Part shown: positions 10,774 through 52,947 of the stretch, one piece after another
Position numbering within the stretch: the first letter of the stretch is position 1
Layout: each line of letters opens with the position of its first letter
NCBI GenBank assembly: GCA_965205365.1
Contig: CBDBGT010000005.1
Location: 270,121-334,120 of the forward strand
DNA: 64,000 nt
Direction: 5' to 3'
Source of the DNA: Bdellovibrionales bacterium
GTDB lineage: Bacteria; Bdellovibrionota; Bdellovibrionia; Bdellovibrionales; UBA1609
Notes under the pieces: generated by a model
The model's database searches: none
What the model saw: only the letters and a program-made list of their open reading frames with translations
What the model was told of the DNA's origin: nothing
Program-made: the position numbers and the translations under genes

Positions 10774-11449
10774 TTGGACAGAGTTGTTACCAGGAGTAAC
10801 ACATGATAATTCCCATGTGGCAACGGCTGTGGTTGCCACAGGGACAATAATAATTTTTAGTCTTATTGGACGTCTTGCTTTAGGAAGGGGAGAAGGAGCT
10901 ATTGTTCCTGTAGGGAAAGTCTCTGTTCGTGGAGTGTTTGAACAACTTATTGAATTTATTAGAAATTTAGGCGCATCGGTGATGGGTGAGCAGGGATATA
11001 AAATGACGCCCTTATTTGCTTCACTCTTTTTCTTTTTGTTTTTTAATAACCTTGTGGGTTTAGCACCAGGAATGACTCCGGCAACTGAAAATATCAACAC
11101 AGGTGTTGCAATCGGAATTTTTAGTTTTCTAGTTTATAATATTTTTGGGTTCATGGAGCATGGTGTTTCTTACTTAAAGCATTTTTTAGGCCCTGTGCTC
11201 TGGCTTGCACCATTGATGCTGCCCATTGAAATTATATCCCATGTAGTGCGTCCTATAAGCTTAGGCTTAAGACTTCAAGGTAATATGCTTGGTGATCATA
11301 TGGTTTTAGGTATTTTTACACAATTGCTTCCTGCTCCAGGTGCAGTGATATTTTATCTACTAGGTTTTTTTGTGTGTTTTATGCAAGCGTTTGTATTTAC
11401 AATGCTTTCAATGATTTATGTATCTATGTCTGTTGCTCATGATCATTAA
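10760..11449 (+). CDS. atpB: F0F1 ATP synthase subunit a
   Basis: 229 aa polytopic protein. The conserved essential-Arg region is LGLRLQGNMLGDHM (consensus LRLFGNM.AG). Followed by the c subunit. Confidence 0.88.
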   Translation: MANFNWTELLPGVTHDNSHVATAVVATGTIIIFSLIGRLALGRGEGAIVPVGKVSVRGVFEQLIEFIRNLGASVMGEQGYKMTPLFASLFFFLFFNNLVGLAPGMTPATENINTGVAIGIFSFLVYNIFGFMEHGVSYLKHFLGPVLWLAPLMLPIEIISHVVRPISLGLRLQGNMLGDHMVLGIFTQLLPAPGAVIFYLLGFFVCFMQAFVFTMLSMIYVSMSVAHDH

Positions 11450-11484: not shown

Positions 11485-11796
11485 ATGAGAGGAATGTTAA
11501 AAACTTTAGGGGTGGCTTTTTTAGTCCTATTGCCAAGTGTATGTGCTTTTGCAGAAAGTGTAGAAGGAGGAAGTAGTGGATCTGGACTTGCAGCTCTTGC
11601 TGCTGGATTAGGATTAGGATTAGCAGTAATTGGTGGAGCGTTAGCACAAGGTAAAATCTGTGCTTCGGCAATGGAAGGAATTGCAAGAAACCCAAATGCT
11701 CAAGAGAAAATGTTTGTATCAATGATTATTGGTTTAGTGCTTATTGAATCATTGGTTATTTACATGCTTGTGGTGTCTTTTAAAATTTTAGGCTAA
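11485..11796 (+). CDS. atpE: F0F1 ATP synthase subunit c
   Basis: 103 aa. After a signal-like N-terminus comes a two-helix hairpin with a Gly-rich helix (GLGLGLAVIGGALAQG), the ARNP loop and the carboxylate helix (LVLIESLVIY). Confidence 0.88.
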   Translation: MRGMLKTLGVAFLVLLPSVCAFAESVEGGSSGSGLAALAAGLGLGLAVIGGALAQGKICASAMEGIARNPNAQEKMFVSMIIGLVLIESLVIYMLVVSFKILG

Positions 11797-13309
11797 TTTT
11801 TGTTTTTAAAATTCTTAAAAGCGGTAATAAGAAAAATAAAAGATTTAAAAAAGAGAGTTCGCTTTTTGAAGAAGAGTCTTTAACATAAGATTGTTTTGAA
11901 AAAGAGTTTGAACATCCTCCGTTATTTTTTAAAGAGTCTGCAAAATTTGTTGAATATGCATAGTTTTTTACTTCCTCAAGCTTAGGTATGATATTAGGTA
12001 AATTTTGATTTTCATCTAAATAATCAAGGGCATTTAAGAAATTAGGTTTGATATATAAACGAGAATCGTTTGTTTGAAGGTATGGCTGGAGATTAAACTT
12101 ATCTCCAGATTCTTTTAGAACATGAACGGCCTGAAATGCTGTTAAGGATTTGCTCTGAGACATTAGACTACCTATAAGACTAGCTATAAGTGGTGCTGAC
12201 ATACTTGTGCCTTTAAGTTCAAGGTAGCTAGATCCAAGACCAAGGCTTAATAAAGACTCTGAAGAACGCTCAGGGCCATCTCCTCCGGGAGAAATAAAAT
12301 CAATGGAAGAACCATAGTTTGAGAAAGTAGAAAGTTGATTTGATGAATTTATTGAGGCCACAGTAACAACATTTTTAATTGCTGCAGGGACAACCCATGA
12401 AGCAGGGATACGCTCATTTCCAGCAGACGCTACAATGACAACACTGTTTTTTGTGGCATAGTTTACTGCAGCAATTTCTGCTGCTTGAGGAAGTTTTTCT
12501 GATCCCCAGCTAGCATTGATAATGTTAGCTCCATTATCAACAGCGTAGTAGATAGTTTGAAGAAGGTCAGCAATACTTGAAGGAGCATTGGATTTAAAAC
12601 CTTTTAAAGACATGATTTTTATAGAATTTAGGGAAACGCTGGAAACACCCTTATTGTTAAAAGACCTTGCTGCAATAAGTCCAGCAACATGTGTTCCATG
12701 GTCGTAATCAATAAAGGAGTCTTGAACTGTGGGCTTAGGGTTTGAATCATTGTCACCAAAATCATAACCATAAACATCATCAATATATCCATTATTGTCG
12801 TCATCAATATTTAAAGAACCATTTAATTCAGCAGAGTTTGTCCAAAGGTTTCCTTGAAGGTCAGTGTGGTCAATATCCACTCCAGTATCAGAAACGGCAA
12901 CAACAATATTTCTTAAAGGAATTAAAGTAGATGAAGGGTCTTGATTTAGACTATTAAAATACCAAGTTTGAAAGTTTAAAAAAGGATCTGAAGTTGCTCT
13001 TAAAAAATCAACTTTACAGTTATGTTGAATTTCTCCGTTGGGAAAGAGTTTTTTAACTTCAGAAAGAGAATTAGAATTTATTAGATATGTGTTTTTTTCA
13101 TTGTTAGTTTTTAAAAGAGCTAACGATTTTTTAGAACTTGAAATTTTTTTAAAGGAAAGGTTAGGCAAACCTGTTTTTCCAAGAAAATTTTTAGAAATAT
13201 TTTTAGGTGTCACAACAAGAAATTGGTTTTTAACTATGTTTTTTTTTAAACAAGAAGCATAAGTAGTTGAGAACATAAAAAAGGATAGAATAAAGATGAA
13301 ATAAGTCAT
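11780..13309 (-). CDS. secreted subtilisin-like (S8) serine protease
   Basis: Asp, His and Ser triad motifs: VAVSDTGVDIDHTDL, HGTHVAGLIAA, GTSMSAPLIASL. N-terminal signal peptide. C-terminal GGCS...LSFLNLLFFLLPLLRILKTK hydrophobic/basic tail. Overlaps the atpE 3' end convergently by 17 nt. Confidence 0.88.
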   Translation of the reverse strand: MTYFIFILSFFMFSTTYASCLKKNIVKNQFLVVTPKNISKNFLGKTGLPNLSFKKISSSKKSLALLKTNNEKNTYLINSNSLSEVKKLFPNGEIQHNCKVDFLRATSDPFLNFQTWYFNSLNQDPSSTLIPLRNIVVAVSDTGVDIDHTDLQGNLWTNSAELNGSLNIDDDNNGYIDDVYGYDFGDNDSNPKPTVQDSFIDYDHGTHVAGLIAARSFNNKGVSSVSLNSIKIMSLKGFKSNAPSSIADLLQTIYYAVDNGANIINASWGSEKLPQAAEIAAVNYATKNSVVIVASAGNERIPASWVVPAAIKNVVTVASINSSNQLSTFSNYGSSIDFISPGGDGPERSSESLLSLGLGSSYLELKGTSMSAPLIASLIGSLMSQSKSLTAFQAVHVLKESGDKFNLQPYLQTNDSRLYIKPNFLNALDYLDENQNLPNIIPKLEEVKNYAYSTNFADSLKNNGGCSNSFSKQSYVKDSSSKSELSFLNLLFFLLPLLRILKTKISLKF

Positions 13310-13374
13310 TAAAGGTTTATGTCGGCAAAAAAACCTTAAAACAGTTGCTTAATAAAAAGATTTATTTTTTAAGA

Positions 13375-13457
13375 TGAGAATATGGACTAAAGGTTTAATA
13401 TTTAAGAAGTTTAACTTTTTTATTTTGTCTAAATTTTGTTTAGATTGTGATTTAAAA
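13375..13457. repeat. left direct repeat of the island: a relic copy of the manB 3' end (attL-like)
   Basis: Aligns with 23216-23297 with one 1-nt indel, about 75-80% identity by hand count. The 19-nt core TCTAAATTTTGTTTAGATT is identical in both copies. The minus strand still reads FKSQSKQNLDKIKK, against FESKSKQNLEEIKN in manB. Confidence 0.7.
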
Positions 13458-13554
13458 TAACCCTACTTGGGTGGACAATATGGACAAAGGTGTAGAGTTG
13501 AGGGAGGGGGTGTTGTCTTGTAGCACTTTTTATGGACTATTCCTTTAGTCGTTA

Positions 13555-13864
13555 CCATGTATAAAAAGCTCTAAAATTTTTGAAATCAGGAAATTGGAGG
13601 AACAAAGAGATTGTGATGATTTTAGATAACCTAGGAGGAAAACCTCTCTTCCTTTTGCTGGGTATGAGTTTGCGCTGTTCGTAATTTAGTCCTAAAATAA
13701 AGTCGTCAACAAGAGTAAAAATCTCTACAATTTGAGTCTTTTTGATTATTCCAAGCTCCTTTTTTCAAATCAGATTAGAAAAACAACTACATCTTACAAA
13801 AGGCTTAAGGTGATCTTCTATTTATACAGGACTTAGATCCTGGGAAAAGTCCGAACTCGGGTTA
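13555..13864 (-). pseudogene. IS982-family element, 5' fragment (terminal inverted repeat plus N-terminal transposase remnant)
   Basis: Ends in the inverted repeat AAAGTCCGAACTCGGGTTA (13846-13864). The minus strand reads (ATA for ATG) IIKKTQIVEIFTLVDDFILGLNYEQRKLIPSKRKRGFPPRLSKIITISLFLQFPDFKNFRAFY, typical of an IS982 N-terminus, then breaks off. The left boundary is approximate. Confidence 0.6.
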
Positions 13865-13872
13865 AATAGTTT

Positions 13873-13903
13873 ATCTTAAGGAGGCTTTAAGCCTCCTTAA
13901 GAT
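13873..13903 (-). terminator. perfect 13-bp-stem hairpin downstream of the DUF1566 lipoprotein gene
   Basis: ATCTTAAGGAGGC-tttaa-GCCTCCTTAGAT-type palindrome read directly. There is no strong U-tract on the minus strand, so terminator function is tentative. Confidence 0.4.
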
Positions 13904-13938
13904 AAAAGAACTAAAGGGCTCATGAATCCTTTTAACCC

Positions 13939-14763
13939 TCAAAACCGCCGCACACAACGAACAAAGTGAGAACCGCCCTTACCATCGATATTCTGACTGC
14001 CATTATAAAACCGCTGGACCCACGCATAGGCAGTAACGTTCTCCGTAGACGACCAATACCATATACCATTAATAATCCTCTTATCTAAACCTGGAAGAGC
14101 AGAGCGATTTGTGTACATTAAATTAAGCTCATAGCGGTTAGGTAAATGCCAATCATCATAACCACCATAATCAAGCTTATCACAGTACCTTGCTGCTGGG
14201 TGATAACCCCCTTGATCCGGTGAAGTTATGGCAACAATTGCATCTGTATTCGCTGAACCGTAATTTGCATCTTTATTAATTTCACCATGATCAGTTCCAG
14301 TAGTTGATGTGTAGTTTACTAGCCCTGGAATATCATACCAATCATCTGAACCATTCCACCTTTTACGTAAACTATCAGTACCAGAACAAGTCACTGTAAA
14401 ATCATCTAATGCATAAGAGTTTATCCCCGAACCTCCTGAAACACTTCCTGATGGAATATCTCCACAACCCCCAGGGGTGGTCATATAGCGATCTGTTCCA
14501 CTACCATTAGTGGCACCTGGGCTAAGGCTTCCAAGATAAATTGCTCCACCCTTACACACGGTTCCTGGGGTGGGAGAAGAATCAAGACATAAATCAGGAC
14601 CAGGGTCTGGATCAGGATCAGGGTCTGGATTAGGATTAGGATCTGGCTGACTAGCTCCACAAGAAGAACCAACACATAAATCAGGATCTGGACTACTAGA
14701 TCCACAAGCAGCTAAACTCAATAGGGTAGTTGTAATTAATAGTAATTGAATGATTTTATTCAT
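13939..14763 (-). CDS. lipoprotein with Pro-Asp repeat linker and DUF1566 (Lcl C-terminal-like) domain
   Basis: Lipobox LSLAAC. The linker is PDPNPNPDPDPDPDPGPD. The C-terminal WHLPNRYELNLMY...WYWSSTE...AWVQRF...VRCVR pattern is characteristic of DUF1566. The gene is visibly richer in G+C than its neighbours. Confidence 0.7.
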   Translation of the reverse strand: MNKIIQLLLITTTLLSLAACGSSSPDPDLCVGSSCGASQPDPNPNPDPDPDPDPGPDLCLDSSPTPGTVCKGGAIYLGSLSPGATNGSGTDRYMTTPGGCGDIPSGSVSGGSGINSYALDDFTVTCSGTDSLRKRWNGSDDWYDIPGLVNYTSTTGTDHGEINKDANYGSANTDAIVAITSPDQGGYHPAARYCDKLDYGGYDDWHLPNRYELNLMYTNRSALPGLDKRIINGIWYWSSTENVTAYAWVQRFYNGSQNIDGKGGSHFVRCVRRF

Positions 14764-14868
14764 ATGAATACCTCATTTATTTTATATCGTATAAACTCTA
14801 ATACTCTATCTAACCCTATGAATTAAAAAAATAGTTTTTTAATATTTAATCTGAATTTAGACTTTAGT

Positions 14869-14998
14869 AAATCCGAGTTAGGATTTTTCCAAGCTCTTTT
14901 TTATAGATCAGATTTAAAAAACAACCACATCTTACAAAAGGCTTAAGGTGATCTTTTATTCAAAACTTAGGTCCTTAGAAAAATTCTAACTCGGGTTA
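14869..14998. mobile_element. 130-bp MITE-like derivative of the IS982-family element
   Basis: Degenerate terminal inverted repeats: AATCCGAGTTAGGATTTTT (14870-14888) and AAAAATTCTAACTCGGGTTA (14979-14998). The interior matches the first ~110 bp of the full copies (compare 17960-18089). No coding capacity. Confidence 0.6.
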
Positions 14999-15059
14999 GC
15001 TAAGTTCTTTTCTAACATTACACGCCTTTTGTTTAGGAAGGCCCCTTATAAACTTTTTA

Positions 15060-15212
15060 CACAAGGATCCAGGATTTAAGGTTGTTAAAAAACGTTGGGT
15101 TGTTGAACGAACTTTTGCATGGCTAGGAAATTATAGAAGGCATTCTAAAGATTATGAAAGGCTGGCAGAATCAAGTGAAGCTATGATTCATCTCATGGTC
15201 AGGAGAATTTAG
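15060..15212 (+). pseudogene. IS5-family DDE transposase, C-terminal fragment
   Basis: Reads ...[47 protein letters not shown]. The [18 protein letters not shown] signature marks the IS5-family C-terminus. No upstream part is present. Confidence 0.7.
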
Positions 15213-15279
15213 ACTTTTCAAACAGCTTCTAAGAGATTTTGTTCGCCGTGTCCGCAACAATTATGTTCGCGAACATTTT

Positions 15280-15450
15280 TTATTCATCTGCAACTTTAAA
15301 TGCACTCTTCATCAAGCCAACTTCACGTGACGGGATAGATAGCTTTTTAGCTATCTCTGGCCAGCGTTTGACTACTGACAAGACCTCTTGAACAATTTCA
15401 TTTGCACGGTCGTCACTCAAACGGAAGTAATGAGCCACACTTAACACAAG
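15280..15450 (-). pseudogene. possible HipA-family toxin kinase, C-terminal remnant
   Basis: The minus strand reads DLGLVLSVAHYFRLSDDRANEIVQEVLSVVKRWPEIAKKLSIPSREVGLMKSAFKVADE*. This resembles the C-terminal helical tail of HipA-like proteins as I recall it. Only about 57 codons remain and they are preceded by a stop. Confidence 0.3.
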
Positions 15451-15999
15451 GCCTAAATCTTAAAGACGGAAAGCTTAAGGTAGGTGAGCTTATAACCAAT
15501 TATGGAACAAAAAAGTATCTTAAGTCTTTTAAAGGGGATGTAGAGATGGATAAGCTTAAGATTAGTAGAGATGCTAAGTGGGATGGTTTTTATGGTGTCA
15601 TCACAAATCTTGAAGATTAAGTCTGTAGCTGAAGTTTTAGAGCGTTATAAAGGACTGTGGAAAATAGAGCAGGCGCTTAGAATAAATAAAACAGATTTAA
15701 AGATGCGACCTATTTTTCATTGGAAACCTGAAAGAATTAAGGCTCATATTGGAATTTGTTTTTTAGCGTATGCAATTATTTGTAGAGTGAATAAACTTAT
15801 TAAAAAAAACCAGTCAAAATTTAGCTTTTTAGATCTTAAAGAGGAGCTCAATAAAGATGAGTACAGTGTTTTAAAGGACTCGAGTACGGGAATACTTTAT
15901 GAGCTTGGATCTAAAACTACTCCTATTTTAAAGAAAATTTATCAAGTTTTAAATCTTAAGGGAAAGGACTGTGTTCGCCTAGTTAAAGAGCAAATGTAG
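15450..15999 (+). pseudogene. IS1634/IS4-superfamily transposase, C-terminal fragment with frameshift
   Basis: Two overlapping ORFs (15402..15620 and 15571..15999) join to read ...DAKWDGFYGVITNLE/IKSVAEVLERYKGLWKIEQALRINKTDLKMRPIFHWKPERIKAHIGICFLAYAI. The Y.GLW.IE..FR..K.DL..RPI.HW motif is typical. The N-terminal two-thirds are missing. Confidence 0.65.
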
Positions 16000-16191
16000 T
16001 GACCCTGAGAAAATATAAGTGCCTGATTTTATGCACCGTGCTGTGTTGAAGTCAGGGTGAACTCCAGCAACCATAGGTAGTTTAAATGTATTAGTAAATT
16101 TTATAGTTAGGTGGGAGACTATTTTATTGGTCAAGTTCAATAATATTTTAAAGAATAAAAGCTCTTAAAATGATTTAATAAGGGGAGCATT

Positions 16192-17139
16192 ATGTTAAAG
16201 GTTAAAGGATTTGGCTTATTATTACTATTGTTTGGACAAAACCTTGGAAGTAGTCATTATTTAGAGGCTAGTAACTGTTTTACAGATATAGACATGAGAA
16301 TACCTGTACGTCATAGCTTATTAGAAGAGGGTGATCCACTTGTAGGAATTTCTCAAGAAGAGTTTATGTTAGTATTGTCTGAAATAGAAACAGTATATAC
16401 GCCAGTTTTTCAAGCTCTAGGTAAGAGCTTCACAGTAAATAAATTGTGGGCAAGTGAGAAAGTAAACGCTTTGGCTCGTCAAAGGGGCGATAATTGGGAT
16501 ATTGATATTCATGGTGGTCTTGGAAGGCATGAGTATTCAACTCTAGATTCTTTGAGAGCAGTTGTTTGTCATGAAATTGGTCACCATCTTGGTGGAGCTC
16601 CTAAGATGTCTAATCGGTGGGTGTCTTGGGCTTCTAGTGAAGGTCAATCTGATTATTTTGCGGCGTCTAAATGTATGAGTAAACTTATTTTAGAGGGGCA
16701 GCAGGGAGGGCTTAAAGTTGCCTCACCGGACCTTTCCATTTATGAGGCTAAAGAGTTGGCCTTAGTTAATGAAAAGTGTGCTCAAAGTTTTCCTCAAGAA
16801 GAAGGCCCTAGCAGTGATGAACAAGAAATTCGAGACACTGCTTTTTCTTCGTGTAAAAGGGCTGCTCTTGCAGGCTTATCTTTCGGAAGATTACAGGGTT
16901 CGGCAAGAAGCTCTGAACAATATATTAGCCTAGCTACTCCAGATGAAACAGTTGTTGTAAAAACTGGTGATGAGCACCCTAAAGCTCAGTGTAGGGCAGA
17001 TACTTATTTTGCTGGATCACTTTGTAATTTAGATTTTAATTTAGAGCTTAGCAATACAGATGCCAACATTGGTACATGTAATAGAGCTGAAGGGTTTAAC
17101 TATGGTGTAAGGCCACTTTGTTGGTTTAAGCCTAGTTAA
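16192..17139 (+). CDS. secreted putative zinc metalloprotease (HExxH)
   Basis: Signal peptide. VVCHEIGHHLGG, followed about 24 residues later by SEGQSDYF (gluzincin-like spacing). Several Cys pairs. GC-richer than the backbone and flanked by IS debris. Confidence 0.5.
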   Translation: MLKVKGFGLLLLLFGQNLGSSHYLEASNCFTDIDMRIPVRHSLLEEGDPLVGISQEEFMLVLSEIETVYTPVFQALGKSFTVNKLWASEKVNALARQRGDNWDIDIHGGLGRHEYSTLDSLRAVVCHEIGHHLGGAPKMSNRWVSWASSEGQSDYFAASKCMSKLILEGQQGGLKVASPDLSIYEAKELALVNEKCAQSFPQEEGPSSDEQEIRDTAFSSCKRAALAGLSFGRLQGSARSSEQYISLATPDETVVVKTGDEHPKAQCRADTYFAGSLCNLDFNLELSNTDANIGTCNRAEGFNYGVRPLCWFKPS

Positions 17140-17248
17140 TAAGTTTATAAATGTAGAGGTGTTAGTTTTTTAAAGTGTTTACTATCTCCTTAGAAATACA
17201 TACTAACATCTTATGTTAATTGAGGACGCGCCCTAATAGAGCTTTAAC

Positions 17249-18089
17249 TAACCCGAGTTCGGACTTTTTAAATCTGGTTTAACACTCTATTTTCATGGCA
17301 CGTATTGTCGGTTTAAAAGGACGGAGACAATATGCAGAGCTAATGCTCATAAAAGATTCACTATAAAGTTTTTTAAGACTTTGGTGTCTTGAGTGTTCAA
17401 TATAAAACTCTTCCTTTAAAATTCTAAAAACAGTCTCAACAATATATCTTTTTCTCAGTAAAAGTTTATGAAAAAGTGGTACAAACTTATTTTTCATATT
17501 TGATTTTAAATGAGTAATCAACTTAAACACCTTTGCCCATAAGTTTTTTAAAGAGGTTCTTTTAAGATATATCCCTTATCTCCGCTTTCCAAACAAACCA
17601 TCTGTAAGATTCTCTAAAGGCTTTGTATCATGGACGTTTCCTGGGGTCATAGTGAAGTTTAGGAGCTCTCCTTTATGAGAAATAATAATATGAACTTTAA
17701 AACCAAAGAGAACCAACCCATTGTTGATTTTTTACGTTTTCAAAGCCCCTTAAAGGTTTTATGGCCACTGATTCTTTTGTTGTTACAAACACTCACGGGG
17801 CTCAGAGTCTAGAATAGATATTCCTGTAATTTGATTCCATAAGTGAGTTTAGGAAAATAAAGAGTTAAGGTGTGCTGAATATTTTTAAGTTCCACAAACC
17901 TATTGTAAGACAAGAGTTTTTGGAAATAAGGTTTTAGAAATTTTTGAACATAGCCTTTTGGTTCTCTTTGATCATTCAAAGCTCCTTTTCATAGATCAGA
18001 TTAAAAAATAAATACATCTTACAAAAGGTTTAAGGTGATCTTTTATTTATACAGGACTTAGATCCTTAGAAAAGTCCGAACTCGGGTTA
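17249..18089 (-). mobile_element. IS982-family element copy A (841 bp, internally deleted, frameshifted transposase)
   Basis: Terminal inverted repeats TAACCCGAGTTCGGACTTT and AAAGTCCGAACTCGGGTTA. Coding remnants include GELLNFTMTPGNVHDTKPL and LITHLKSNMKNK...RKRYIVETVF..LK....IEHSRHQS (IS982 DDE C-terminus). Stops and frameshifts are present. Relative to the 13555-13864 fragment it lacks the KRGFPPRLS...FRAFY N-terminal block. Confidence 0.75.
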
Positions 18090-19300
18090 TTGAGTAAAAT
18101 CCCTGTGTTTCTTGCTATGTATTCTGCAAAATCAGTGAAACCTTTTAACTTTACTTTAAAGGCTTCAACTATCCACTGGGTTAAAAATAAATTGGCTTCT
18201 TTATCTTCAAAATGTCTAAAACTAAAAAAATTGTAGAACTGTTCTTTGTGTAAATATGCCTTAAAGAGGTCTTTATTTATTTCTTCTAAAGACTCTAAGC
18301 TTTTTACTTTTTTATCACTTAAATTCTTCTTTTTAAAACGAAGAAGCCAATTCATTCTATGTATGGCTTTTCTTTTTCCAACTTTTAATCTTGAGCCAAC
18401 ACTTAACTCTTTTCGACAATCATCAATTGCTTTATTTAACCTCTGGATCACGTGAAAATGATCTGCCACTTGCATAGCCTGCGGCACATGATCATCACAA
18501 CTGTACTTAAAAGCTAAATGTAGGTCCTTTGAGACTGCCTCAATTTTAGCCCATCGATCAACGCCTAAGATCATAAAAAACTCATCCACACTGGCTCTGG
18601 TGTTGCCATTACTCACCCAAATAACTTTTTTAGTATCTGTGTCAGTTATAATTGTGACCTAGCTGTAACCCCTCTTAAAACTCTTTTCATCTATACTTAT
18701 ATGTATTGGGCCTGGTATTTCATAAGATTGAACCATTCTTTTTAAAACCTCATGGTCAATTTCATAAGTTACAGAATAACTTAAACCAAAAATTCTAGCA
18801 GTGTCTGCAACAGTCACCATTTTTGAACATAGCATGTACTCAACATTGTCTTGAAGTCTTTTTGTAATGTTGTGCTTTTCAGCCTTAAACCATAAGAATT
18901 CACCTTGTGGGCCATCTGAACAATCACATTTAACACGGTTAAACTTCACTCTCCATTCACACTCTTTAAGTCCATAAGGTATGTCTTTTAATTTAATCTC
19001 TCTGCTGTCATGAATTTTCTTAACCAAGCTTCGACACTTTGAACAGATTCTTTCTTTGGTCGAATCAGGCTCAATTTCAACAACAATTCTATCTTTAAAA
19101 ACCTTCATATCTTTAATGATGAAATTTGATCCTTGAAGATCAAACATACGCTCTACTATGTCTTTTTGATTCATATAAAACCCCCTTTGAAATAAAAAAA
19201 TCTTATATAAAGAGGTTTTAACTTGGTCACAGGTTTAGTTTGAGAAATGAGCGCCTCAGGATTTAAGTCCTGGAGATTTCCTCAATTTTAGAAGAGAACC
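18090..19300 (-). pseudogene. ISL3-family transposase (frameshifted, 3' end truncated by IS982 copy A)
   Basis: ORFs 18659..19174 (zinc-finger N-terminus, CSKCRSLVKK) and 18047..18616 (DDE core, HFHVIQRLNKAIDDCR) are in different frames. The reading frame runs straight into the IS982 inverted repeat at 18089. A putative inverted repeat GGTTCTCTTCTAAAATTGAGG lies at 19280-19300 (complement). Confidence 0.75.
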
Positions 19301-19366
19301 AAGGTTTATTTGTGGAAATTAGCTTTATGTTTTAATATTGTTCTATATATGAGATAAGGGGGAGGG

Positions 19367-20416
19367 ATGAGACTTTTAGGGGTTTTGATAATTTTACTGC
19401 TGGAAAGTCAGCCATCTTTTGGAATCAGTAGATCAGAAAAATTGAGGCTTACTAATGAAAATGTGCGCCTAAGAGTTTTGCAGAGCAAGACGCTTTTTGA
19501 ACTGTCAGAAAACTTACCCTTGAATAAAAAACAGCGAAAAGAGGTGCAAGCTTATTTAATTCGCAATAGGTTTAAGAATTTTTCAGTTCCCAAAATTAAA
19601 ATTGAAAAAGGCAAGCTTGTCATTGGAAATCATTCTCGAATTGAACTAAATTTAGAGCAATCTCATAAGGAAGTTGTGTTCGTAAATGGGTCGAGGGTCA
19701 AAGTTAAAGACAAAAATTACTCCCAGCTTGTAGAAGAAATTCAGAAGATTGTAGAGAAAGATTTTTTTGTAAGTACATTGGAAGAACTGCTTTTTCCGAG
19801 GGCAAATGCATTTGTATGGTTTATACCAGTAGCCTTAACTGCTGCGACGGTTGCCATTCCTGTATACACCCTAGCTATATGTGGAGATGGTCTTTGTCAT
19901 TTAAAGGAACGAATGAAACAATACATTACTGATAAGCACTCTCCCATCAGATCTCTTCAGTGCACCCCAGAGGGACTGCTGAAATCAGTTAGTTATTATA
20001 TGCCGAGCTTGGATCATCACGTGCATTACGAGTCTCTTGAATTTCAACATAGAAAGGGTAAAGTTTCAAAAATAAGTAGAAGTCGTTATTATGGTGCTGC
20101 TGGCCATAGTGGTACGGAAACTAGGGTTTGTGACCACTTTGTGGATAAAGGGCGTATTAATAAAACAGATTATAGTCTTAATTATTCGTCGCGGGAAGTA
20201 GCCAAACTCTTGTGTGATAAGCCTCCCAAAGGAAAGCATTATACACGCTTAAAACTTTATAGGGGTATGGAGGACAGGCATCTACATCCTGTTCTTGACT
20301 TTAAGGTCTGCTGCAAATACAAAAGTTGTTCTCTTACAGCTCAAAAAATGATTTCTAAGAATAACAGAAAATTTTTCAAAAAACAGTCCGAAGCGGTACA
20401 GCAAAGTATTAAATAA
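19367..20416 (+). CDS. hypothetical secreted/membrane protein with Cys/His-rich C-terminal half
   Basis: 349 aa. Signal peptide, one internal hydrophobic helix (FVWFIPVALTAATVAIPVYTLAI), then about 10 Cys and many His. I recognise no family. Lies inside the IS-bounded segment. Confidence 0.4.
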   Translation: MRLLGVLIILLLESQPSFGISRSEKLRLTNENVRLRVLQSKTLFELSENLPLNKKQRKEVQAYLIRNRFKNFSVPKIKIEKGKLVIGNHSRIELNLEQSHKEVVFVNGSRVKVKDKNYSQLVEEIQKIVEKDFFVSTLEELLFPRANAFVWFIPVALTAATVAIPVYTLAICGDGLCHLKERMKQYITDKHSPIRSLQCTPEGLLKSVSYYMPSLDHHVHYESLEFQHRKGKVSKISRSRYYGAAGHSGTETRVCDHFVDKGRINKTDYSLNYSSREVAKLLCDKPPKGKHYTRLKLYRGMEDRHLHPVLDFKVCCKYKSCSLTAQKMISKNNRKFFKKQSEAVQQSIK

Positions 20417-20773
20417 AAGAAGTGCAGCTCTCTTTTTACCACTATGAATCAGAAGAAGTAGAGCTTTTGCGAGATATTTGTTTATATGGGCTCCCAAATG
20501 AGTCTTTAGACCTAATTTTTCCATCTTTGCCATGAGTAACAAGCTCTGTCTTGTCCCTCTCAGCAATTTTTCTACCAGATTCTGTTTGCCCTGAGAAATA
20601 GTTTACACTTTTAAAACCTTAAACAAAATTGCCTTTTTTAACGGACTTGATTGAAAAGCCCGTCCTATCTCACAACCAACCCAGAAAGCTCTTTTTTAAG
20701 CTTTCTCAGCTCTCTGACTTGCTCATCTATTGAGTCCATAGCTGACCTTCTTAACGTAAGCGCTTCATCAACC

Positions 20774-22264
20774 CTGACTTTTACCCACAAATATTTGGTC
20801 TAGTCTAGTAAATTTTTGGATCTAAATACCCTAGACTTTAGGTTTAACAATTTAACCTAAGGCATATTAGTGGATATCTCATCAGAATTTAAAAATGCAC
20901 AGCTAGGAGACAAGAGACTTAACTCTCGACTAGAGACTCTAGCAAGAACTTTCGAAAAAAATCATGGTCAATCTATAAACTTCTCCTGCCAAGATTGGAA
21001 GTCTTCAAAGGCTGCTTATAGATTTTTTGATAATGATCGCTTTGATGAGACTGATATAATTAAACCACATATCTCACAAACATTTCAAAGAATGGAAGCT
21101 ATTAATGATAAAGAAAAGGTTTTAATTTCTCATGATTCAAGTGAGGTAGTTCTTCCAGGAACAAAACTTATCCAAGGTGGCGGTTTTATAGGTTCCTTTA
21201 AACACCCAGCTAGCGGCAAAGAGCTGACAACAAAAGGCATGATGATGCATTCCTCCTTAGCCCTTTCTAGTACTGGAGTACCATTGGGATTAGTGGCACA
21301 AAAAGTCTGGACAAGGGATATTAAAAATAAACGAACGATTAGAAATGCCGGTAAAAACTTTTCACGCGTCCCTGTGGAAGAAAAAGAAAGTTTTAAGTGG
21401 ATTGAAGGCGTTAACAGCGTAGCTGCTGAATTTCCACCAGAACGGTTAGTTCATCTCTGTGACAGGGATGCTGACATGTATGAATTATTTTTCAATTGCA
21501 TTAGTTTAAGTACTAATTTTGTAATTAGAGCAGTTCATCAAAGGTCGACGGTGAGAGGAAAGGTAAAAGTTTTTGATCGCGTTTCAAGAACAGCTCCATG
21601 TGGAGAATATAAGTTACATTTGCCAAAAACTCATAAAAGAAAATCCAGAATCACAAAAATAAAAGTTCGATACTATAAAGTAAAGATTTTGCCACCAATA
21701 GATAAGAGAAAAGAATACCCTCCAATTGAATTATACGTTGTTTCAGCAAAAGAGCATAGCTCGATGACCGATAGAGTGGATTGGAAACTCTTAACTAACC
21801 TGCCTGTTGATTGTTTTGAGGAAGCTTTGGAAAAAATTAACTGGTATAAAGAAAGATGGAATATTGAAGTTTTTTTTAAAACATTAAAATCAGGATTTAG
21901 CATTGAGAGAAGTCGGCTACAGCATATTGATAGATTAAAAAAATTTGTAAGCTTCACAAGTGTATTAGCATGGAAAGTATTTTGGCTATCAAAAGTTTCA
22001 AGAGAAGCCCCCAATAGTAAGTCTGACCTTTGCTTTACAAAAGAACAGCGAGCCATACTTATAAAATTTGAAAGAAATGCAGGACGGTTAAAATTGAAAA
22101 TGAGGAGCAATAGTAATGATTTTGTTATTGCCTTTGCTCGGCTCGGTGGCTATTTGGCGAGAAATTCTGATCCACCACCAGGCCCACTGGTGCTTTGGAG
22201 GGCCATGGCGAGGCTTAGTGATATTCAGATTGGAGTGACTATGTAATTTGTGGGTAAAAGTCAG
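20774..22264 (+). mobile_element. intact IS50/Tn5-like insertion sequence (IS4 family)
   Basis: Perfect 19-bp terminal inverted repeats CTGACTTTTACCCACAAAT (20774-20792; complement at 22246-22264). Flanked by the direct repeat TTCATCAACC (20764-20773 and 22265-22274). Contains a single 458-aa transposase ORF. Confidence 0.9.
20870..22246 (+). CDS. IS4-family (Tn5 Tnp-like) DDE transposase
   Basis: GTG start. LGDKRLNSRLETLA...AAYRFFDN, CDRDADMYELF, YKERWNIEVFFKTLKSG and ARLGGYLAR...LWRAMARL parallel the Tn5 transposase blocks (LGDPRRTARL, CDREADIHAYL, YTHRWRIEEFHKAWKTG, ARLGGFMD). Confidence 0.9.
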   Translation: MDISSEFKNAQLGDKRLNSRLETLARTFEKNHGQSINFSCQDWKSSKAAYRFFDNDRFDETDIIKPHISQTFQRMEAINDKEKVLISHDSSEVVLPGTKLIQGGGFIGSFKHPASGKELTTKGMMMHSSLALSSTGVPLGLVAQKVWTRDIKNKRTIRNAGKNFSRVPVEEKESFKWIEGVNSVAAEFPPERLVHLCDRDADMYELFFNCISLSTNFVIRAVHQRSTVRGKVKVFDRVSRTAPCGEYKLHLPKTHKRKSRITKIKVRYYKVKILPPIDKRKEYPPIELYVVSAKEHSSMTDRVDWKLLTNLPVDCFEEALEKINWYKERWNIEVFFKTLKSGFSIERSRLQHIDRLKKFVSFTSVLAWKVFWLSKVSREAPNSKSDLCFTKEQRAILIKFERNAGRLKLKMRSNSNDFVIAFARLGGYLARNSDPPPGPLVLWRAMARLSDIQIGVTM

Positions 22265-22295
22265 TTCATCAACCCACTGTTGACAGCTACTTAGT

Positions 22296-23136
22296 TAACC
22301 CGAGTTCGGACTTTTCTAAGGATCTAAGTCCTGTATAAATAAAAGATCACCTTAAGCCTTTTGTAAGATGTATTTATTTTTTAATCTGATCTATGAAAAG
22401 GAGCTTTGAATGATCAAAGAGAACCAAAAGGCTATGTTCAAAAATTTCTAAAACCTTATTTCCAAAAACTCTTGTCTTACAATAGGTTTGTGGAACTTAA
22501 AAATATTCAGCACACCTTAACTCTTTATTTTCCTAAACTCACTTATGGAATCAAATTACAGGAATATCTATTCTAGACTCTGAGCCCCGTGAGTGTTTGT
22601 AACAACAAAAGAATCAGTGGCCATAAAACCTTTAAGGGGCTTTGAAAACGTAAAAAATCAACAATGGGTTGGTTCTCTTTGGTTTTAAAGTTCATATTAT
22701 TATTTCTCATAAAGGAGAGCTCCTAAACTTCACTATGACCCCAGGAAACGTCCATGATACAAAGCCTTTAGAGAATCTTACAGATGGTTTGTTTGGAAAG
22801 CGGAGATAAGGGATATATCTTAAAAGAACCTCTTTAAAAAACTTATGGGCAAAGGTGTTTAAGTTGATTACTCATTTAAAATCAAATATGAAAAATAAGT
22901 TTGTACCACTTTTTCATAAACTTTTACTGAGAAAAAGATATATTGTTGAGACTGTTTTTAGAATTTTAAAGGAAGAGTTTTATATTGAACACTCAAGACA
23001 CCAAAGTCTTAAAAAACTTTATAGTGAATCTTTTATGAGCATTAGCTCTGCATATTGTCTCCGCCCTTTTAAACCGACAATACGTGCCATGAAAATAGAG
23101 TGTTAAACCAGATTTAAAAAGTCCGAACTCGGGTTA
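22296..23136 (+). mobile_element. IS982-family element copy B (841 bp, inverted relative to copy A)
   Basis: Same length, inverted repeats and defects as copy A. I found a single nucleotide difference (ctccgCcc against ctccgTcc) in the stretches I compared by eye. Confidence 0.75.
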
Positions 23137-23215
23137 ACTATAGACCCATGAAGTGTGGGTTATCCGCTAAAAAGCCTACCTAGCTTTCCTTGGGTCATAC
23201 CCTTTAATAGCCCAG

Positions 23216-23297
23216 TGAGAACACGGATTAAAGGCCTAATATGTGAAAAGCTTGGTTTTTTATTTCTTCTAAATTTTGTTTAGATTTTGATTCAAAA
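23216..23297. repeat. right direct repeat of the island (functional manB 3' end, attR-like)
   Basis: Partner of 13375-13457. Overlaps the last ~23 codons and the stop of manB. Confidence 0.7.
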
Positions 23298-24598
23298 CGA
23301 AGAGTTATAGCAGGTTGAGTATTAGAAACTCGTACTAAAGCCCATCCATTTTCAAAGTTAGCACGAACACCATCAATTTCATTTAGAGACAGACATTTGT
23401 TTTTAATTTTATTTCTGTATTTTTCAACAAGCTCATATTTTTTCTTTTCTCCCACTTCAATGCGAAGTTCAGCTGTGGAAAAAGTGGGGGGAAAGTCTGA
23501 TAAAAGTTTTGAAATAGTAGAGTTAGAATTTTGTATGATTTCAATTAAACGAAGGCTGCAATAAATAGCATCGTCAAAGCCATAAAAACGGTCTGCAAAA
23601 AAAATATGGCCACTAAATTCACCTCCAAACGGTGATTTTAACTCTTTGATTTTTCTTTTGATTAAAGAGTGTCCGGTCATCCACATAATGGGCTCTCCAC
23701 CCCATTTTGATAAGAGGTTGAAGTACTCTTTAGAGCATTTTACATCAGCAACAATTTTAGCTCCAGGGTGATTTTTAAGAATGGATTTAGCGTAAATAGA
23801 CATAAGTTCATCAGTTTGAACAGTTTTTCCAGTCTCTGTTACAATTACGATACGATCTGCGTCACCATCATAGCCTACACCGAAACAAGCTTTTGAGGAA
23901 AGAACGGTTTTTTTTAAATCCATTAGGTTTTCTTCTAAAGTTGGGTCTGGGTGATGGTTTGGAAAATCCCCATCAGGCTTTTCAAAAAGTATTTTTGGGT
24001 TGAGGCCAGCTGCTTTATAGGCTTTACGAGCAATTAAACCAGCAGTTCCATTTCCACAGTCTACAACAAAAGGAATGTTTTTTAGATTAAATTCTTTTGA
24101 TATTCTTGCAATATAAGGAGTAATGATGTCGTAGGGTTTAATAAAACCATTTAAAACTAAACTGTCTATATTTAAAATATACTTTTCTAGTAATTTTATT
24201 TTTTCAGAAGTTAAGGTGTTTTTTTTTAAAGAAATTTTAAAACCATTGTATTCAGGAGGGTTGTGGCTACCTGTAATCATAATAGAGCCTGTGAGATCTT
24301 TAATGTGGTAGCATGAAAAATAACAAACAGGAGATGTGATCACATTTAGGTTTAAAATAAAAGCTCCAGCATCACTCATACCTTTAGCCATGGCATTTAA
24401 AAGAGGAAGGCTTGAATGGCGAACATCTCTTCCTAGAGCGATTTTAATATTGGTGTCATTAGTTTCATTTTTACAAAAATCTATAAATCCTTTACCAAGT
24501 GCGTAGGCAAAAGAATCATCAAAATCAATTTTATACTTTCCCCTAATATCGTATTCTCTAAAGATTTCTTTATTGTATTTTAAGCTGTTGGTCTTCAT
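23228..24598 (-). CDS. manB: phosphomannomutase/phosphoglucomutase
   Basis: 456 aa. Active-site loop MITGSHNPPEYNGFK, metal loop GVGYDGDADR and sugar loop GGEFSGH. AlgC/ManB type rather than GlmM. Confidence 0.85.
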   Translation of the reverse strand: MKTNSLKYNKEIFREYDIRGKYKIDFDDSFAYALGKGFIDFCKNETNDTNIKIALGRDVRHSSLPLLNAMAKGMSDAGAFILNLNVITSPVCYFSCYHIKDLTGSIMITGSHNPPEYNGFKISLKKNTLTSEKIKLLEKYILNIDSLVLNGFIKPYDIITPYIARISKEFNLKNIPFVVDCGNGTAGLIARKAYKAAGLNPKILFEKPDGDFPNHHPDPTLEENLMDLKKTVLSSKACFGVGYDGDADRIVIVTETGKTVQTDELMSIYAKSILKNHPGAKIVADVKCSKEYFNLLSKWGGEPIMWMTGHSLIKRKIKELKSPFGGEFSGHIFFADRFYGFDDAIYCSLRLIEIIQNSNSTISKLLSDFPPTFSTAELRIEVGEKKKYELVEKYRNKIKNKCLSLNEIDGVRANFENGWALVRVSNTQPAITLRFESKSKQNLEEIKNQAFHILGL

Positions 24599-36043: not shown

Positions 36044-36117
36044 GGTGGCGTAGCAAAGAGGCTATGCGCCGGCCTGCAAAGCCGTTGACGCCGGTTCGAA
36101 TCCGGCCGCCACCTCCA
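36044..36117 (+). tRNA. tRNA-Cys (anticodon GCA)
   Basis: Hand-folded cloverleaf. Acceptor stem GGTGGCG/CGCCACC. Anticodon loop CTGCAAA with GCA at positions 34-36. T arm GCCGG-TTCGAAT-CCGGC. Discriminator U73 and an A13:A22-type D stem, as in bacterial tRNA-Cys. The CCA end is encoded. Confidence 0.9.
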
Positions 36118-36193
36118 CTTCGACAAAACAAATGTCTTCGGTATAAAGTGTAAACTATGTGTCAGGACGTACATTATTGTAGTTTAAAAAAAA

Positions 36194-36346
36194 TTGTAGA
36201 CTGAAGATGAAGTAAACCCAAGTGTTAAAGTGGGCACCATATAAACGCTTTAGGCTTCTTACTGAAGGTAAGCATGCTCACCACATTCAGGGACAGTTCC
36301 CGATAAATATACTTGTAGGGTTTACTTTTTTCAATTCAGCCTACAA
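36194..36346 (+). ncRNA. candidate structured small RNA, 6S (ssrS)-like
   Basis: ORF-free region. A long interrupted closing stem of about 27 bp pairs 36194-36223 with 36311-36346. Inside are single-stranded stretches, an apical near-palindrome GGTAAGCATGCTCACC, and CACATTCA followed by the mini-hairpin GGGAcagtTCCC. This layout and these two strings recall E. coli 6S RNA from memory. Confidence 0.4.
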
Positions 36347-36395
36347 ACAAGGCTCATTATATCATTAAGAATGGGGTTTTACAAGGCTAGGAGGC

Positions 36396-48830: not shown

Positions 48831-50018
48831 CTGACTTTTACCCACAAATTACATAGTCACTCCAATCTGAATATCACTAAGCCTCGCCATGGCCCTCCAA
48901 AGCACCAGTGGGCCTGGTGGTGGATCAGAATTTCTCGCCAAATAGCCACCGAGCCGAGCAAAGGCAATAACAAAATCATTACTATTGCTCCTCATTTTCA
49001 ATTTTAACCGTCCTGCATTTCTTTCAAATTTTATAAGTATGGCTCGCTGTTCTTTTGTAAAGCAAAGGTCAGACTTACTATTGGGGGCTTCTCTTGAAAC
49101 TTTTGATAGCCAAAATACTTTCCATGCTAATACACCTGTGAAGCTTACAAATTTTTTTAATCTATCAATATGCTGTAGCCGACTTCTCTCAATGCTAAAT
49201 CCTGATTTTAATGTTTTAAAAAAAACTTCAATATTTCATCTTTCTTTATACCAGTTAATTTTTTCCAAAGCTTCCTCAAAACAATCAACAGGCAGGTTAG
49301 TTAAGAGTTTCCAATCCACTCTATCGGTCATCGAGCTATGCTCTTTTGCTGAAACAACGTATAATTCAATTGGAGGGTATTCTTTTCTCTTATCTATTGG
49401 TGGCAAAATCTTTACTTTATAGTATCGAACTTTTATTTTTGTGATTCTGGATTTTCTTTTATGAGTTTTTGGCAAATGTAACTTATATTCTCCACATGGA
49501 GCTGTTCTTGAAACGCGATCAAAAACTTTTACCTTTCCTCTCACCGTCGACCTTTGATGAACTGCTCTAATTACAAAATTAGTACTTAAACTAATGCAAT
49601 TGAAAAATAATTCATACATGTCAGCATCCCTGTCACAGAGATGAACTAACCGTTCTGGTGGAAATTCAGCAGCTACGCTGTTAACGCCTTCAATCCACTT
49701 AAAACTTTCTTTTTCTTCCACAGGGACGCGTGAAAAGTTTTTACCGGCATTTCTAATCGTTCGTTTATTTTTAATATCCCTTGTCCAGACTTTTTGTGCC
49801 ACTAATCCCAATGGTACTCCAGTACTAGAAAGGGCTAAGGAGGAATGCATCATCATGCCTTTTGTTGTCAGCTCTTTGCCGCTAGCTGGGTGTTTAAAGG
49901 AACCTATAAAACCGCCACCTTGGATAAGTTTTGTTCCTGGAAGAACTACCTCACTTGAATCATGAGAAATTAAAACCTTTTCTTTATCATTAATAGCTTC
50001 CATTCTTTGAAATGTTTG
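48831..50018 (-). pseudogene. second IS50/Tn5-like copy, truncated and nonsense-mutated
   Basis: Starts with the same 19-bp inverted repeat (48831-48849). Collinear with 21079-22264 of copy 1. Identity ends at 50018, which corresponds to codon ~70. TGG to TGA at the YKERW codon ends the ORF early (ORF 49236..50003). One further substitution (L to P in the antisense ORF comparison) is visible. Confidence 0.85.
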
Positions 50019-51258
50019 GCCTCTCCGTTATCTAGAAGGGTGTAGTTTGTGCCAATCTCATTTGAGGTGGCCAGTACCAACTTGAAGTATTGATGTAATT
50101 TGAGTTTAAAAGTCCACATCGCTGCAGTATTTTGTGCATAAATGACTCTGGGTTTGTGTAACCATAGCCCATCCTTCTAAGCACTTTAATCTTGTTGTTT
50201 AAGCCTTCACTTACTGCTGTTGTGAGCCCAGACATAATATATCCTTCAATGTAACCTCTGTACTTTCTTAAGGTTTTTGCAAATTTCAAAAAGGGCTTTA
50301 ATTTTGACTCTCTTGCATATCGGTACCAAAGAACCAGAGCTTTTCTAAAGTCTTTTACATTCTTTTGATCTAAAACTTTATGGAAGTGCTCAACTAAAAC
50401 TGAAGCTTTAAAAATGTTCTTATTCACATCTAAAAGCCTCTCTAATTTAGTAAAATCTCCTTTAGATAAATTCTTCTCACGCTCCACTAAAATATATCTT
50501 TTATGAGGTGCTAGCACATCCATTAAAAACTTATCTTCATTTTCTTTAGCTTTTTTAAACTCAAATTTTCTCACATCATCAAAAAAATTATTTAGCCCTT
50601 CTGCAACATGGAACCTATCAACACAGACCTTAGCATTCTCACATTTACCTATCACAGCCTCAATAAAAGCATCATGCATATCAACTGCAAAAAACTTGAT
50701 CTTATCTAGCTGCTCTTTTGTTAATACCTTTAAACAATTAAGTAAGCTTGAACCCTTTCTGCCCATTGCATTTGAGAGCACCTTTCTCATCTTCGTACAG
50801 ACTAAATTTGTGATGAACTTAATCGTATTCTTGTCACAAGACTTCTTTCCAAAAATAGTTCTAAAGTGCACCTCATCAGATGACATCTGCTCTAAATCTA
50901 ACTTTCTTTCAGCATAGCTTAAAAGAGGTTTTATTTGCTTCATCCGGTACTGATCCAAATTCCACACAGTCTTGGGGTTCATTCTTAAAATTCTAGCAAC
51001 TGACTCACAAGTCATCTCTTCACAAAGACGTCCTGCTTTTTCTACAAGTGAGTAAGTTAAGTTTTCAAAATTAGGGTGAGTAAAATCAACACCAGCTGAT
51101 CTGACTTTATCATCACACATTAAGCAGTGCCCTCGAAGCTGTTTTAAGTAAATCCACACCTCTTCATATGAGCCTATTGGAGAAGCTTTAATTTTTCGAA
51201 GCTTCCACTCATGGACATGAGATATTTGGCAGCCACATTGATTACAGCCTACCCCCGG
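50019..51258 (-). pseudogene. ISL3-family element, missing its transposase 5' end and left inverted repeat
   Basis: ORF 50032..51159 carries the ISL3 DDE core. The frame stays open upstream (CNQCGCQISHVHEW zinc finger) up to the IS3 boundary, with no start codon. About 35-40 N-terminal codons are absent. Confidence 0.75.
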
Positions 51259-51365
51259 TTTTTGGATAGTTGGGACCTGAGAGAAAAATTAATTATTTAA
51301 AATTCAGTTTAACTTTTGAAATCCACTTTATTTAAACAATATCAGGGGCTTAAAAAGGAAAACAC

Positions 51366-51866
51366 ATGAAAAACAATAACCTCAATAAAACTTATAATGA
51401 AAACTTTAAACTCAACGCTGTGAAAAAATTACTCGCTGACAAAAAAGGACTCACTTACACCGCTAGTAAACTTAACATTGCCTCTTCAACCCTCTATGGA
51501 TGGAAGAAAAAATATGCTAATTTAAATTCTATGACCCACAGCAACAGCAATAAAAAACTCTCTCTTGAAGACAAACTTAACTTTATTAAAAAAACTCAAT
51601 CTTTAAATGAAAACGAACTTGGAAAATTTCTTAGAGAAAATGGACTTAACTCTTCAGACCTTATTAATTTTGAAAAAGAATTACTTGGACAAAATCCTGT
51701 TGGAAGACCTTCACTTGATCCTGAAATTAAAACTTTAAGGAAAGATAAAATAAACTTAGAAAGATCTTTAAATCGAGCTGAAAAAGCTCTAGCTGAACAG
51801 TCTGCTAGAATCATCTTGTTAAAAAAAAGCCACGAGATCTGGGGGGTCAAAGAGGACGAAGATTAA
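51366..51866 (+). CDS. IS3 OrfA (HTH / leucine-zipper protein)
   Basis: 166 aa. HTH (ASKLNIASSTLYGWKKKY) and coiled coil. A8 run at 51821-51828 near the 3' end. Confidence 0.85.
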   Translation: MKNNNLNKTYNENFKLNAVKKLLADKKGLTYTASKLNIASSTLYGWKKKYANLNSMTHSNSNKKLSLEDKLNFIKKTQSLNENELGKFLRENGLNSSDLINFEKELLGQNPVGRPSLDPEIKTLRKDKINLERSLNRAEKALAEQSARIILLKKSHEIWGVKEDED

Positions 51867-52906: not shown

Positions 52907-52947
52907 CTGAATTAAATTTCCCTTCAGGTCCCAACTATCCAAAAATT

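Follow-up and report, generated by a model that had tools for sequence, protein, structure and literature searches.

An apparently old duplication of the manB 3' end, now bordering a nest of insertion sequences, in an uncultured Bdellovibrionales genome

In the 64,000-nt stretch of DNA analysed here (the window), which comes from an uncultured member of the Bdellovibrionales placed through its manB homologues, the 3' end of the phosphomannomutase/phosphoglucomutase gene manB occurs twice, as 83-nt direct repeat copies on either side of 9.76 kb of other DNA. At the level of sequence, the alignments establish that both copies derive from a single manB 3' end, with the right one functional and the left one a dead fragment in the ancestral place. 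We infer with good support that the duplication predates the split from the closest relative, L001, and postdates the split from lineages in which the site is empty, and that the 9.76 kb between the copies is a secondary nest of insertion sequences (ISs) that took in native genes, being neither the original insert nor a coherent foreign island. The repeat copies and the genes to which they belong are the following.

23228..24598, minus strand: live manB, intact, 456 aa, with all four PGM_PMM Pfam domains; its orthologues are 78-87% identical and have the same 456-aa length.
23216..23297, minus strand: right repeat copy, made up of the 22 terminal codons of manB, its stop and the next 12 nt (from the alignment; collinearity with L001 resumes at 23217).
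13375..13457, minus strand: left repeat copy, a frameshifted, AT-decayed relic of the manB 3' end (from the alignment; similarity to the live manB end of L001 reaches 13364).
13310..13374, minus strand: ancestral manB-protease intergenic DNA, still joined to the relic (91% identical to the L001 DNA upstream of the protease gene; it can also be aligned with the intergenic region of L002-L004).
11780..13309, minus strand: S8 (subtilase) protease gene (Peptidase_S8), the ancestral downstream neighbour of manB, which it adjoins in six relatives.

Local alignment of 13300-13520 with 23150-23370 matched 13375-13457 to 23216-23297, with 67 of 83 columns identical (80.7%) and one 1-nt indel. An earlier note on this DNA had reported the same pair, with one indel and an identity of 75-80% by hand count, and its exact coordinates were recovered. 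The alignment score of 84 was far above that of 300 dinucleotide-preserving shuffles (20.2 ± 3.3, maximum 40), and blastn found the pair inside the window with E=3.7e-11. A dispersed intergenic repeat had been named in the same note as a finding that would undo its proposal; within the 64-kb window the pair belongs to no dispersed family, and only these two copies were present even with mismatches allowed.

The assignment of the right copy to the live manB end and of the left copy to a relic, which was also made in the earlier note, held when the sequences were compared, the right copy containing the last 22 codons and the left one lying in the ancestral position. The left copy reads GYFKSQSKQNLDKIKK before leaving the frame; it keeps the manB frame for 16 codons (...FKSQSKQNLDKIKK), and the frame is then lost through a 1-nt insertion. 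Among the 15 substitutions between the copies, 11 run from G/C in the live copy to A/T in the relic, though only 22 of the 82 live positions are G/C, and this pattern is, judged from the letters, what AT-biased decay produces when a copy of the same sequence is free of constraint. The distance from the out-of-frame TAG of the relic to the ATG of the protease gene is 77 nt, and the same distance is found in L002 once the start codon is put in register. Because the relic and the 65 nt that follow it align with the manB end and intergenic region of relatives, with equal TAG-ATG spacing, the left copy represents the resident gene end, which has stayed where it was. No further similarity to manB or pdxA was found in the DNA 5' of the relic (score 25 against 23.5 ± 2.2).

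The empty site is seen in relatives. In six of them (L002, L003, L004, L008, L009 and L012), manB is followed directly by the S8 protease gene on the same strand, as the earlier note had correctly predicted for the locus without its insert. The gene order in L002, L003 and L004 is pdxA-manB-S8 protease-atpE-atpB, with manB identities of 78-80% and a manB-protease gap of approximately 76-108 nt, and the adjacency persists in L008, L009 and L012, in which manB identity falls to 51-62%. Because the two genes neighbour each other in related Bdellovibrionales, it is the window genome that carries a derived insertion. An echo of the live gene end in the intergenic region of L002 ('TTAATCCGT') was considered and dropped, since it is absent from L003 and the live flank of L001 fits the L001 relic far better.

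L001, whose manB is 87% identical at the amino acid level, is collinear with the window on both sides with 86-88% DNA identity, and the collinearity breaks exactly at the repeat copies (window 13404/L001 11845, and window 23217/L001 11382). L001 has a live-end/relic pair of its own, 11354-11395 and 11845-11887, in which 38 of 42 positions are identical (score 57 against 20 ± 3 for shuffles) and which takes in 17 nt of manB with the stop codon and 24 nt or more of intergenic DNA. Over the 30 nt common to all four copies, the two live ends agree against the two relics at three sites, and at one site the copies pair by genome. The most parsimonious history of these four copies would be one duplication event, before the split of the window genome from L001 and after the L002 group had branched off. 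The manB-protease interval of L001 is only 0.57 kb and holds the C-terminal third of an IS1595 transposase. Since the same pair surrounds only 0.57 kb in L001, the repeat is most simply older than the content that it now encloses; and since the repeats are 19% diverged while IS copies within them are nearly identical, the content of the interval is much younger than its borders. A different IS, represented by the IS1595 C-terminal third, thus lies at the same manB-protease site in L001 (11372-11940), so that the relic-bounded gap has been a landing pad independently in both lineages.

The interval between the copies in the window (13458-23215) is 9,758 nt long, and approximately 57% of it is IS material in eight pieces from five families (IS982, IS5, IS1634, ISL3 and IS4). 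The IS982, ISL3, IS5, IS1634 and IS50-like material listed in the earlier note was confirmed by family, the IS50-like part being the IS4/Tn5-like element, and its description of an interval heavily colonised by ISs was also borne out. These pieces, and the DNA at the two margins, are as follows.

13458..13554, no strand assigned: 97 nt of DNA beside the relic, with no match in the window or the fetched loci.
13555..13868, minus strand: 5' fragment of an IS982-family element (terminal repeat and approximately 70 N-terminal codons) that is cut short on the relic side (repeat families D1, D2 and I3; 13731-13868 is 88-89% identical to the ends of two longer copies).
14882..15005, plus strand: another solo end fragment of IS982-like type, directly oriented relative to 13744-13868 (repeat comparison).
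15000..15209, plus strand: C-terminal fragment of an IS5-family transposase (PF13586 DDE_Tnp_1_2, 6.6e-11).
15460..15999, plus strand: C-terminal fragment of an IS1634-family transposase in two frames (NF033559, 4.5e-25, model positions 313-483 of 483).
17249..18089, minus strand: IS982-like copy A, its transposase frame dead with many stops (99.8% identical to 22296-23136, inverted; PF13612 on an 83-aa remnant).
18047..19174, minus strand: ISL3-family transposase in two open reading frames (ORFs), the 3' end cut by IS982-like copy A (PF01610, PF14690 and PF13542; NF033550).
20774..22264, plus strand: IS4/Tn5-like element, bounded by 19-bp terminal inverted repeats and coding for an intact 458-aa transposase (NF033590, 3e-95).
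22296..23143, plus strand: IS982-like copy B, inverted relative to copy A (repeat comparison).
23162..23215, no strand assigned: 54 nt of DNA that separate the live repeat copy from IS982-like copy B, with no match elsewhere in the window or the fetched loci.

The families in this interval are truncated and interrupt one another, and it has young copies in common with other loci, as in an IS nest. Within the IS4/Tn5-like element, 1,188 of the 1,491 nt (21077-22264) recur at 48831-50018 with 99.8% identity. The 70-aa frame of the 13555..13868 fragment was assigned to the IS982 N-terminus by inspection, without a hidden Markov model (HMM) match. The 54-nt piece cuts the downstream flank of the live copy at +13, and in L001 this flank continues to at least +24. 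IS982-like copies A and B (17249-18089 and 22296-23143) are 99.8% identical despite their stop-riddled frames; either an intact relative mobilised them in trans, or recombination copied them. No target-site duplications of the IS982-like copies were found, including in the pairing expected after inversion between the copies. A composite transposon does not describe the interval, as the long IS982-like copies are internal and inverted, target duplications are lacking, and the bordering repeat is 83 nt of gene sequence. A possible HipA stub had been suggested at 15283-15459 (minus strand); it had no support from Pfam or NCBIfam HMMs or from PDB sequences and was rejected. Between the ORFan described below and the IS4-like element, a minus-strand 58-aa frame (20445-20618) matched DUF2188 (E=7e-7) and is probably a gene fragment.

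Three further genes lie among the IS pieces.

13939..14763, minus strand: lipoprotein gene with an Lcl C-terminal domain, 274 aa (PF07603, 3e-16; lipobox LAAC by inspection), followed by a 37-nt hairpin at 13870-13906.
16058..17150, plus strand: ectopic copy of a lineage gene for a 315-aa secreted, Cys-rich HExxH protein (coding sequence 16192-17139), with 134 nt of its own upstream DNA (80.5% DNA-identical to L005 9866-10953 over 1,096 nt).
19367..20416, plus strand: 349-aa ORFan with a signal-peptide-like N-terminus (its own sequence was the sole match among 5.8 billion proteins and 1.84 billion cluster representatives; no Pfam or NCBIfam match).

According to the earlier note, everything between the repeats was accessory, GC-richer cargo. 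This view was not sustained: the GC content at third codon positions (GC3) is 0.25 in the Lcl_C gene, 0.24 in the 315-aa gene and 0.33 in the ORFan, with 0.19-0.27 in the surrounding core genes, so that two of the three genes have native GC3, and the higher GC of all three sits in codon positions 1 and 2. Together with the native site of the 315-aa gene, its 96% identical paralogue and the lack of phage or plasmid matches, this does not agree with a coherent foreign cargo.

The 315-aa family is found throughout the clade and also in Bacteriovorax and Halobacteriovorax. In L005 and L087/L088 the gene is divergent beside a Peptidase_M17 gene, and the window copy has no M17 neighbour; L086 shares the downstream genes of this locus, with the upstream ORF cut by the contig end, so the native site is probably present there as well. 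Two paralogues of the window gene, 96% and 87% identical (P0242 and P0122), lie together on one 404,524-nt contig. This contig is probably part of the same genome, because no manB closer than 87% is found in the database, and the island copy would then be a recent intragenomic duplicate. A HEIGHH motif and eight cysteines are invariant in the protein, which belongs to a Bdellovibrionota-wide family for which there is no Pfam or NCBIfam model. Its AlphaFold model (pLDDT, the predicted local distance difference test score, 81; pTM, the predicted template modelling score, 0.84) had no significant fold match in the PDB (best E=0.28), and the weak top matches were zincin-like metalloproteases; going by the predicted fold, the family may represent zincins that have yet to be described. 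Downstream of the L005 homologue, 11203-11341 matched window 17751-17886, in the interior of the IS982-like element and in the same orientation, at 68.5% over 143 nt (E~7e-8). An IS982 insertion shared beside the 315-aa gene by the window and L005 was rejected, as this match is too weak to call and may be an old association or chance.

Two IS982-like end fragments of approximately 125 nt (13744-13868 and 14882-15005), in direct orientation, lie on either side of the Lcl_C lipoprotein gene, and the hairpin that follows this gene is near-perfect at 97%. The gene and the IS ends look like a small module that was moved or duplicated jointly. The single-sequence structure prediction for the ORFan was uninformative (pLDDT 37); its length of 349 aa in DNA of 33% GC speaks for its being a real gene now or in the recent past.

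For the origin of the scar, we favour Campbell-type integration of a circle. A circular DNA with a manB end of its own would have integrated at the resident gene, keeping manB whole and pushing the resident end aside; the recombinase and backbone genes would later have been lost, leaving a fully decayed scar comparable to a cis-mobilizable element (CIME), and this scar would then have served as a safe landing pad for IS elements. We give the site-specific version of this event a probability of roughly 0.4, and circle integration of either kind, including RecA-mediated integration of any circle that carried the segment, would stand at about even odds. Because nothing of the founding insert survives in either genome, the choice of mechanism rests on priors and weak cues. 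The exact preservation of the 456-aa manB speaks for the integration of a circle, whether site-specific or RecA-mediated, and integration at gene ends is common. The insert is absent in relatives and is bordered by direct repeats, one of which is the 3' end of the target gene, as would be seen with an integrative element. The old integration into the manB 3' end that the earlier note had proposed is therefore kept in part: the relic, the empty site and the missing integrase agree with it, and an attL/attR pair made by an integrase would be the likeliest single origin, but the single foreign island is given up.

Several results weigh against this origin. We searched all ORFs, and stop-to-stop segments of at least 30 aa in DNA outside assigned features, with Pfam and NCBIfam, and found no integrase, excisionase, conjugation or phage gene or remnant in the window interval, of which approximately 1.1 kb lies outside assigned features; the earlier note had likewise seen no surviving integrase and had proposed this search for remnants. 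Gene calling in the 0.57-kb interval of L001 gave only the IS1595 fragment, with no further HMM scan. Phage and plasmid records had no similarity to the interval beyond two IS-sized snippets; for a prophage in particular, there was no match to phage structural, replication or lysis Pfam families and no blastn match in 50,697 phage records. A 23-nt extension of the supposed crossover core had no matches in JGI metagenome contigs, and the nine matches of the 19-mer in viral contigs all had random flanks, as expected by chance, so that no attP-bearing element was recognised. Other than in L001, which served as the positive control, none of 74 other manB loci had a relic downstream of manB, so that manB is no known target of repeated integration. 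The form of the repeat is a further difficulty. Since the L001 pair includes at least 24 nt beyond the stop, the duplicated unit extended into the intergenic DNA; the manB portion of the relic measures 67 nt in the window and 17 nt in L001; and the inner edge of the relic abuts the truncated IS1595 in L001 and lies 97 nt from the truncated IS982-family fragment in the window. The present limits of the repeat are certainly secondary truncations in L001 and probably so in the window. Finally, the single ancestral event is supported by three sites against one, and independent integrations by related site-specific elements would match these sites as well.

No defined crossover core emerged either, as there is no sharp identity peak and the repeat limits differ between the two carriers. 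The earlier note had singled out a perfect 19-nt core, TCTAAATTTTGTTTAGATT. Its two identical copies are where it placed them: the reverse complement, AATCTAAACAAAATTTAGA, was found in a scan of the window only at 13428-13446 and 23268-23286, even with two mismatches, against a chance expectation of 0.01. The core is not statistically special as a run within the repeat, because with 16 differences in 83 columns a perfect run of at least 19 nt arises in approximately 16% of random placements (P≈0.16), and weighting by base composition made no change. As the relic decays from G/C to A/T, an AT-rich core had little to lose, and we rejected it as evidence of a crossover site. The core is also a 6-5-6 palindrome, TCTAAA-CAAAA-TTTAGA, which is suggestive of a recombinase site, yet such palindromes are common in AT-rich DNA. 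With an ordinary core, plain AT decay, a unit that extends past the stop and a relic inner edge that differs between the genomes, the classic attL/attR signature described in the earlier note could not be upheld.

Two alternatives account for the scar nearly as well. The more serious of them, though an unlikely one, is an IS-centred segmental duplication, with its right edge approximately 24-45 nt past the manB stop and an IS at the join, after which IS-adjacent deletions would have trimmed the second copy from its 5' side and the join would have grown into the IS nest. The positions of IS1595 at the L001 relic edge and of the IS982 fragment 97 nt away in the window point this way, as do the unequal relic lengths in the two genomes (67 and 17 nt of manB), the IS copies without target duplications, which indicate rearrangement, and the second IS nest in the same window. 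Also in its favour, the live gene end is conserved like the rest of manB, and an IS between duplicated copies together with frequent IS-adjacent deletions has been seen experimentally (PMC11708052). However, this course requires several steps, and an unstable tandem duplication must survive until it is trimmed. No more of the second copy is present 5' of the relic, and for the three fixed live/relic differences in common with L001 to arise, time must have passed between duplication and split.

We consider somewhat less probable again a homology-facilitated illegitimate recombination, in which DNA of a related strain (manB, its flank and something extra) would have recombined upstream and joined illegitimately 67 nt before the stop of the resident manB. 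A whole gene followed by a displaced resident 3' fragment would be produced in this way with no recombinase, and the three live/relic differences shared with L001 would fit two alleles that were never identical. Against this, the divergence of manB is not anomalous among its neighbours (identities to L002: pdxA 64%, manB 79%, S8 70% and atpB 85%), most of the live/relic differences resemble one-sided AT decay, and natural transformation is not known in the lineage.

The literal proposal of the earlier note, a variant of the site-specific integration above, was a single integrative island of approximately 9.8 kb with three foreign secreted-protein genes, its integrase lost and ISs peppered over it. 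An insert exactly at a gene 3' end, flanking direct repeats, an empty site in relatives and a slightly higher GC (0.358 against 0.329) all accord with it, but we regard it as improbable, a shade more so than illegitimate recombination. The L001 pair encloses 0.57 kb with none of the three genes, two of these genes have native GC3, the 315-aa gene occupies a conserved native locus in relatives and has a paralogue with 96% identity, and repeats that are 19% diverged enclose IS copies that are 99.8% identical. It would be more surprising still, and we think it very doubtful, if the manB 3' end with its palindrome were the attB of an undescribed integrative-element family, and the interval were still cis-mobilizable by a recombinase encoded elsewhere, shuttling the secreted-protein genes (Lcl_C lipoprotein, HExxH protein and ORFan). 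A fortuitous resemblance between AT-rich sequences, or a dispersed intergenic repeat, has only the AT-richness of the region in its favour and can be dismissed, since the score lies approximately 20 standard deviations over shuffles, two copies occur in 64 kb, and the left copy is orthologous to the L001 relic, with the manB frame kept for 16 codons.

Elsewhere in the window, a second IS nest (48831-53491) lies directly upstream of mfd (53486-56956). It contains the following pieces.

From 48831: truncated IS4/Tn5-like copy.
50032-51159: ISL3 transposase, 375 aa.
51366-52906: IS3-type orfA/orfB pair.
53007-53432: IS4 N-terminal fragment.
53430-53491: IS982-like end.

This uncultured Bdellovibrionales genome is accordingly rich in ISs, with at least two IS nests in 64 kb. 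A tRNA-Cys (GCA) gene was also found at 36044-36117 (plus strand), with an adjoining 6S RNA gene at 36189-36350 (minus strand; Rfam RF00013, 67 bits).

The scar is of a known kind, here in a new lineage: an old insertion duplicated a gene end, and the site afterwards turned into an IS nest. No new mechanism is implied. Its value is mainly cautionary and as an example of dating. The relic of a gene end can persist after the element that produced it has gone, and here the flanking repeats date the event as older than the split of two lineages of metagenome-assembled genomes that are approximately 87% identical, everything between the repeats being younger IS traffic and relocated native genes. 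Programs for calling islands that equate direct repeats, higher GC and ISs with one foreign island would mis-describe the locus. The locus also points to a conserved, clade-wide secreted HExxH family that has no Pfam family or structural relative.

Islands and prophages with tyrosine recombinases integrate in the 3' ends of tRNA, tmRNA or protein genes, with an attP that carries a replacement end. The manB locus resembles them in the functional end at one border, the displaced resident end at the other and the empty site in relatives; it differs in having no recombinase, in content that is native-looking and IS-derived, and in that manB has no second case in 74 other loci. IS-associated duplications with adjacent deletions have been described as large, fresh, laboratory cases (Ngan et al., 2024, PMC11708052). 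Unlike in those cases, only 83 nt of the second copy is left here, the event is old and the join point is beyond reconstruction; the likeness to them and to IS nests lies in families that truncate one another, the absence of target duplications, the near-identical copies at 48.8-53.5 kb, and the IS fragments at or near the edges of the duplicated segment. [quoted passage not shown] The window locus departs from these in having no backbone gene or remnant of an ICE or IME family, in repeats that are 19% diverged and not near-identical, in a site known from sequence alone, in a repeat that runs past the stop, and in a relic whose inner edge is truncated by an IS (L001) or lies 97 nt from one (window). 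It is nevertheless like a CIME in its insert at the 3' end of a housekeeping gene that has stayed intact, in its gene-end direct repeats without an integrase, and in the other mobile DNA that has accreted between them.

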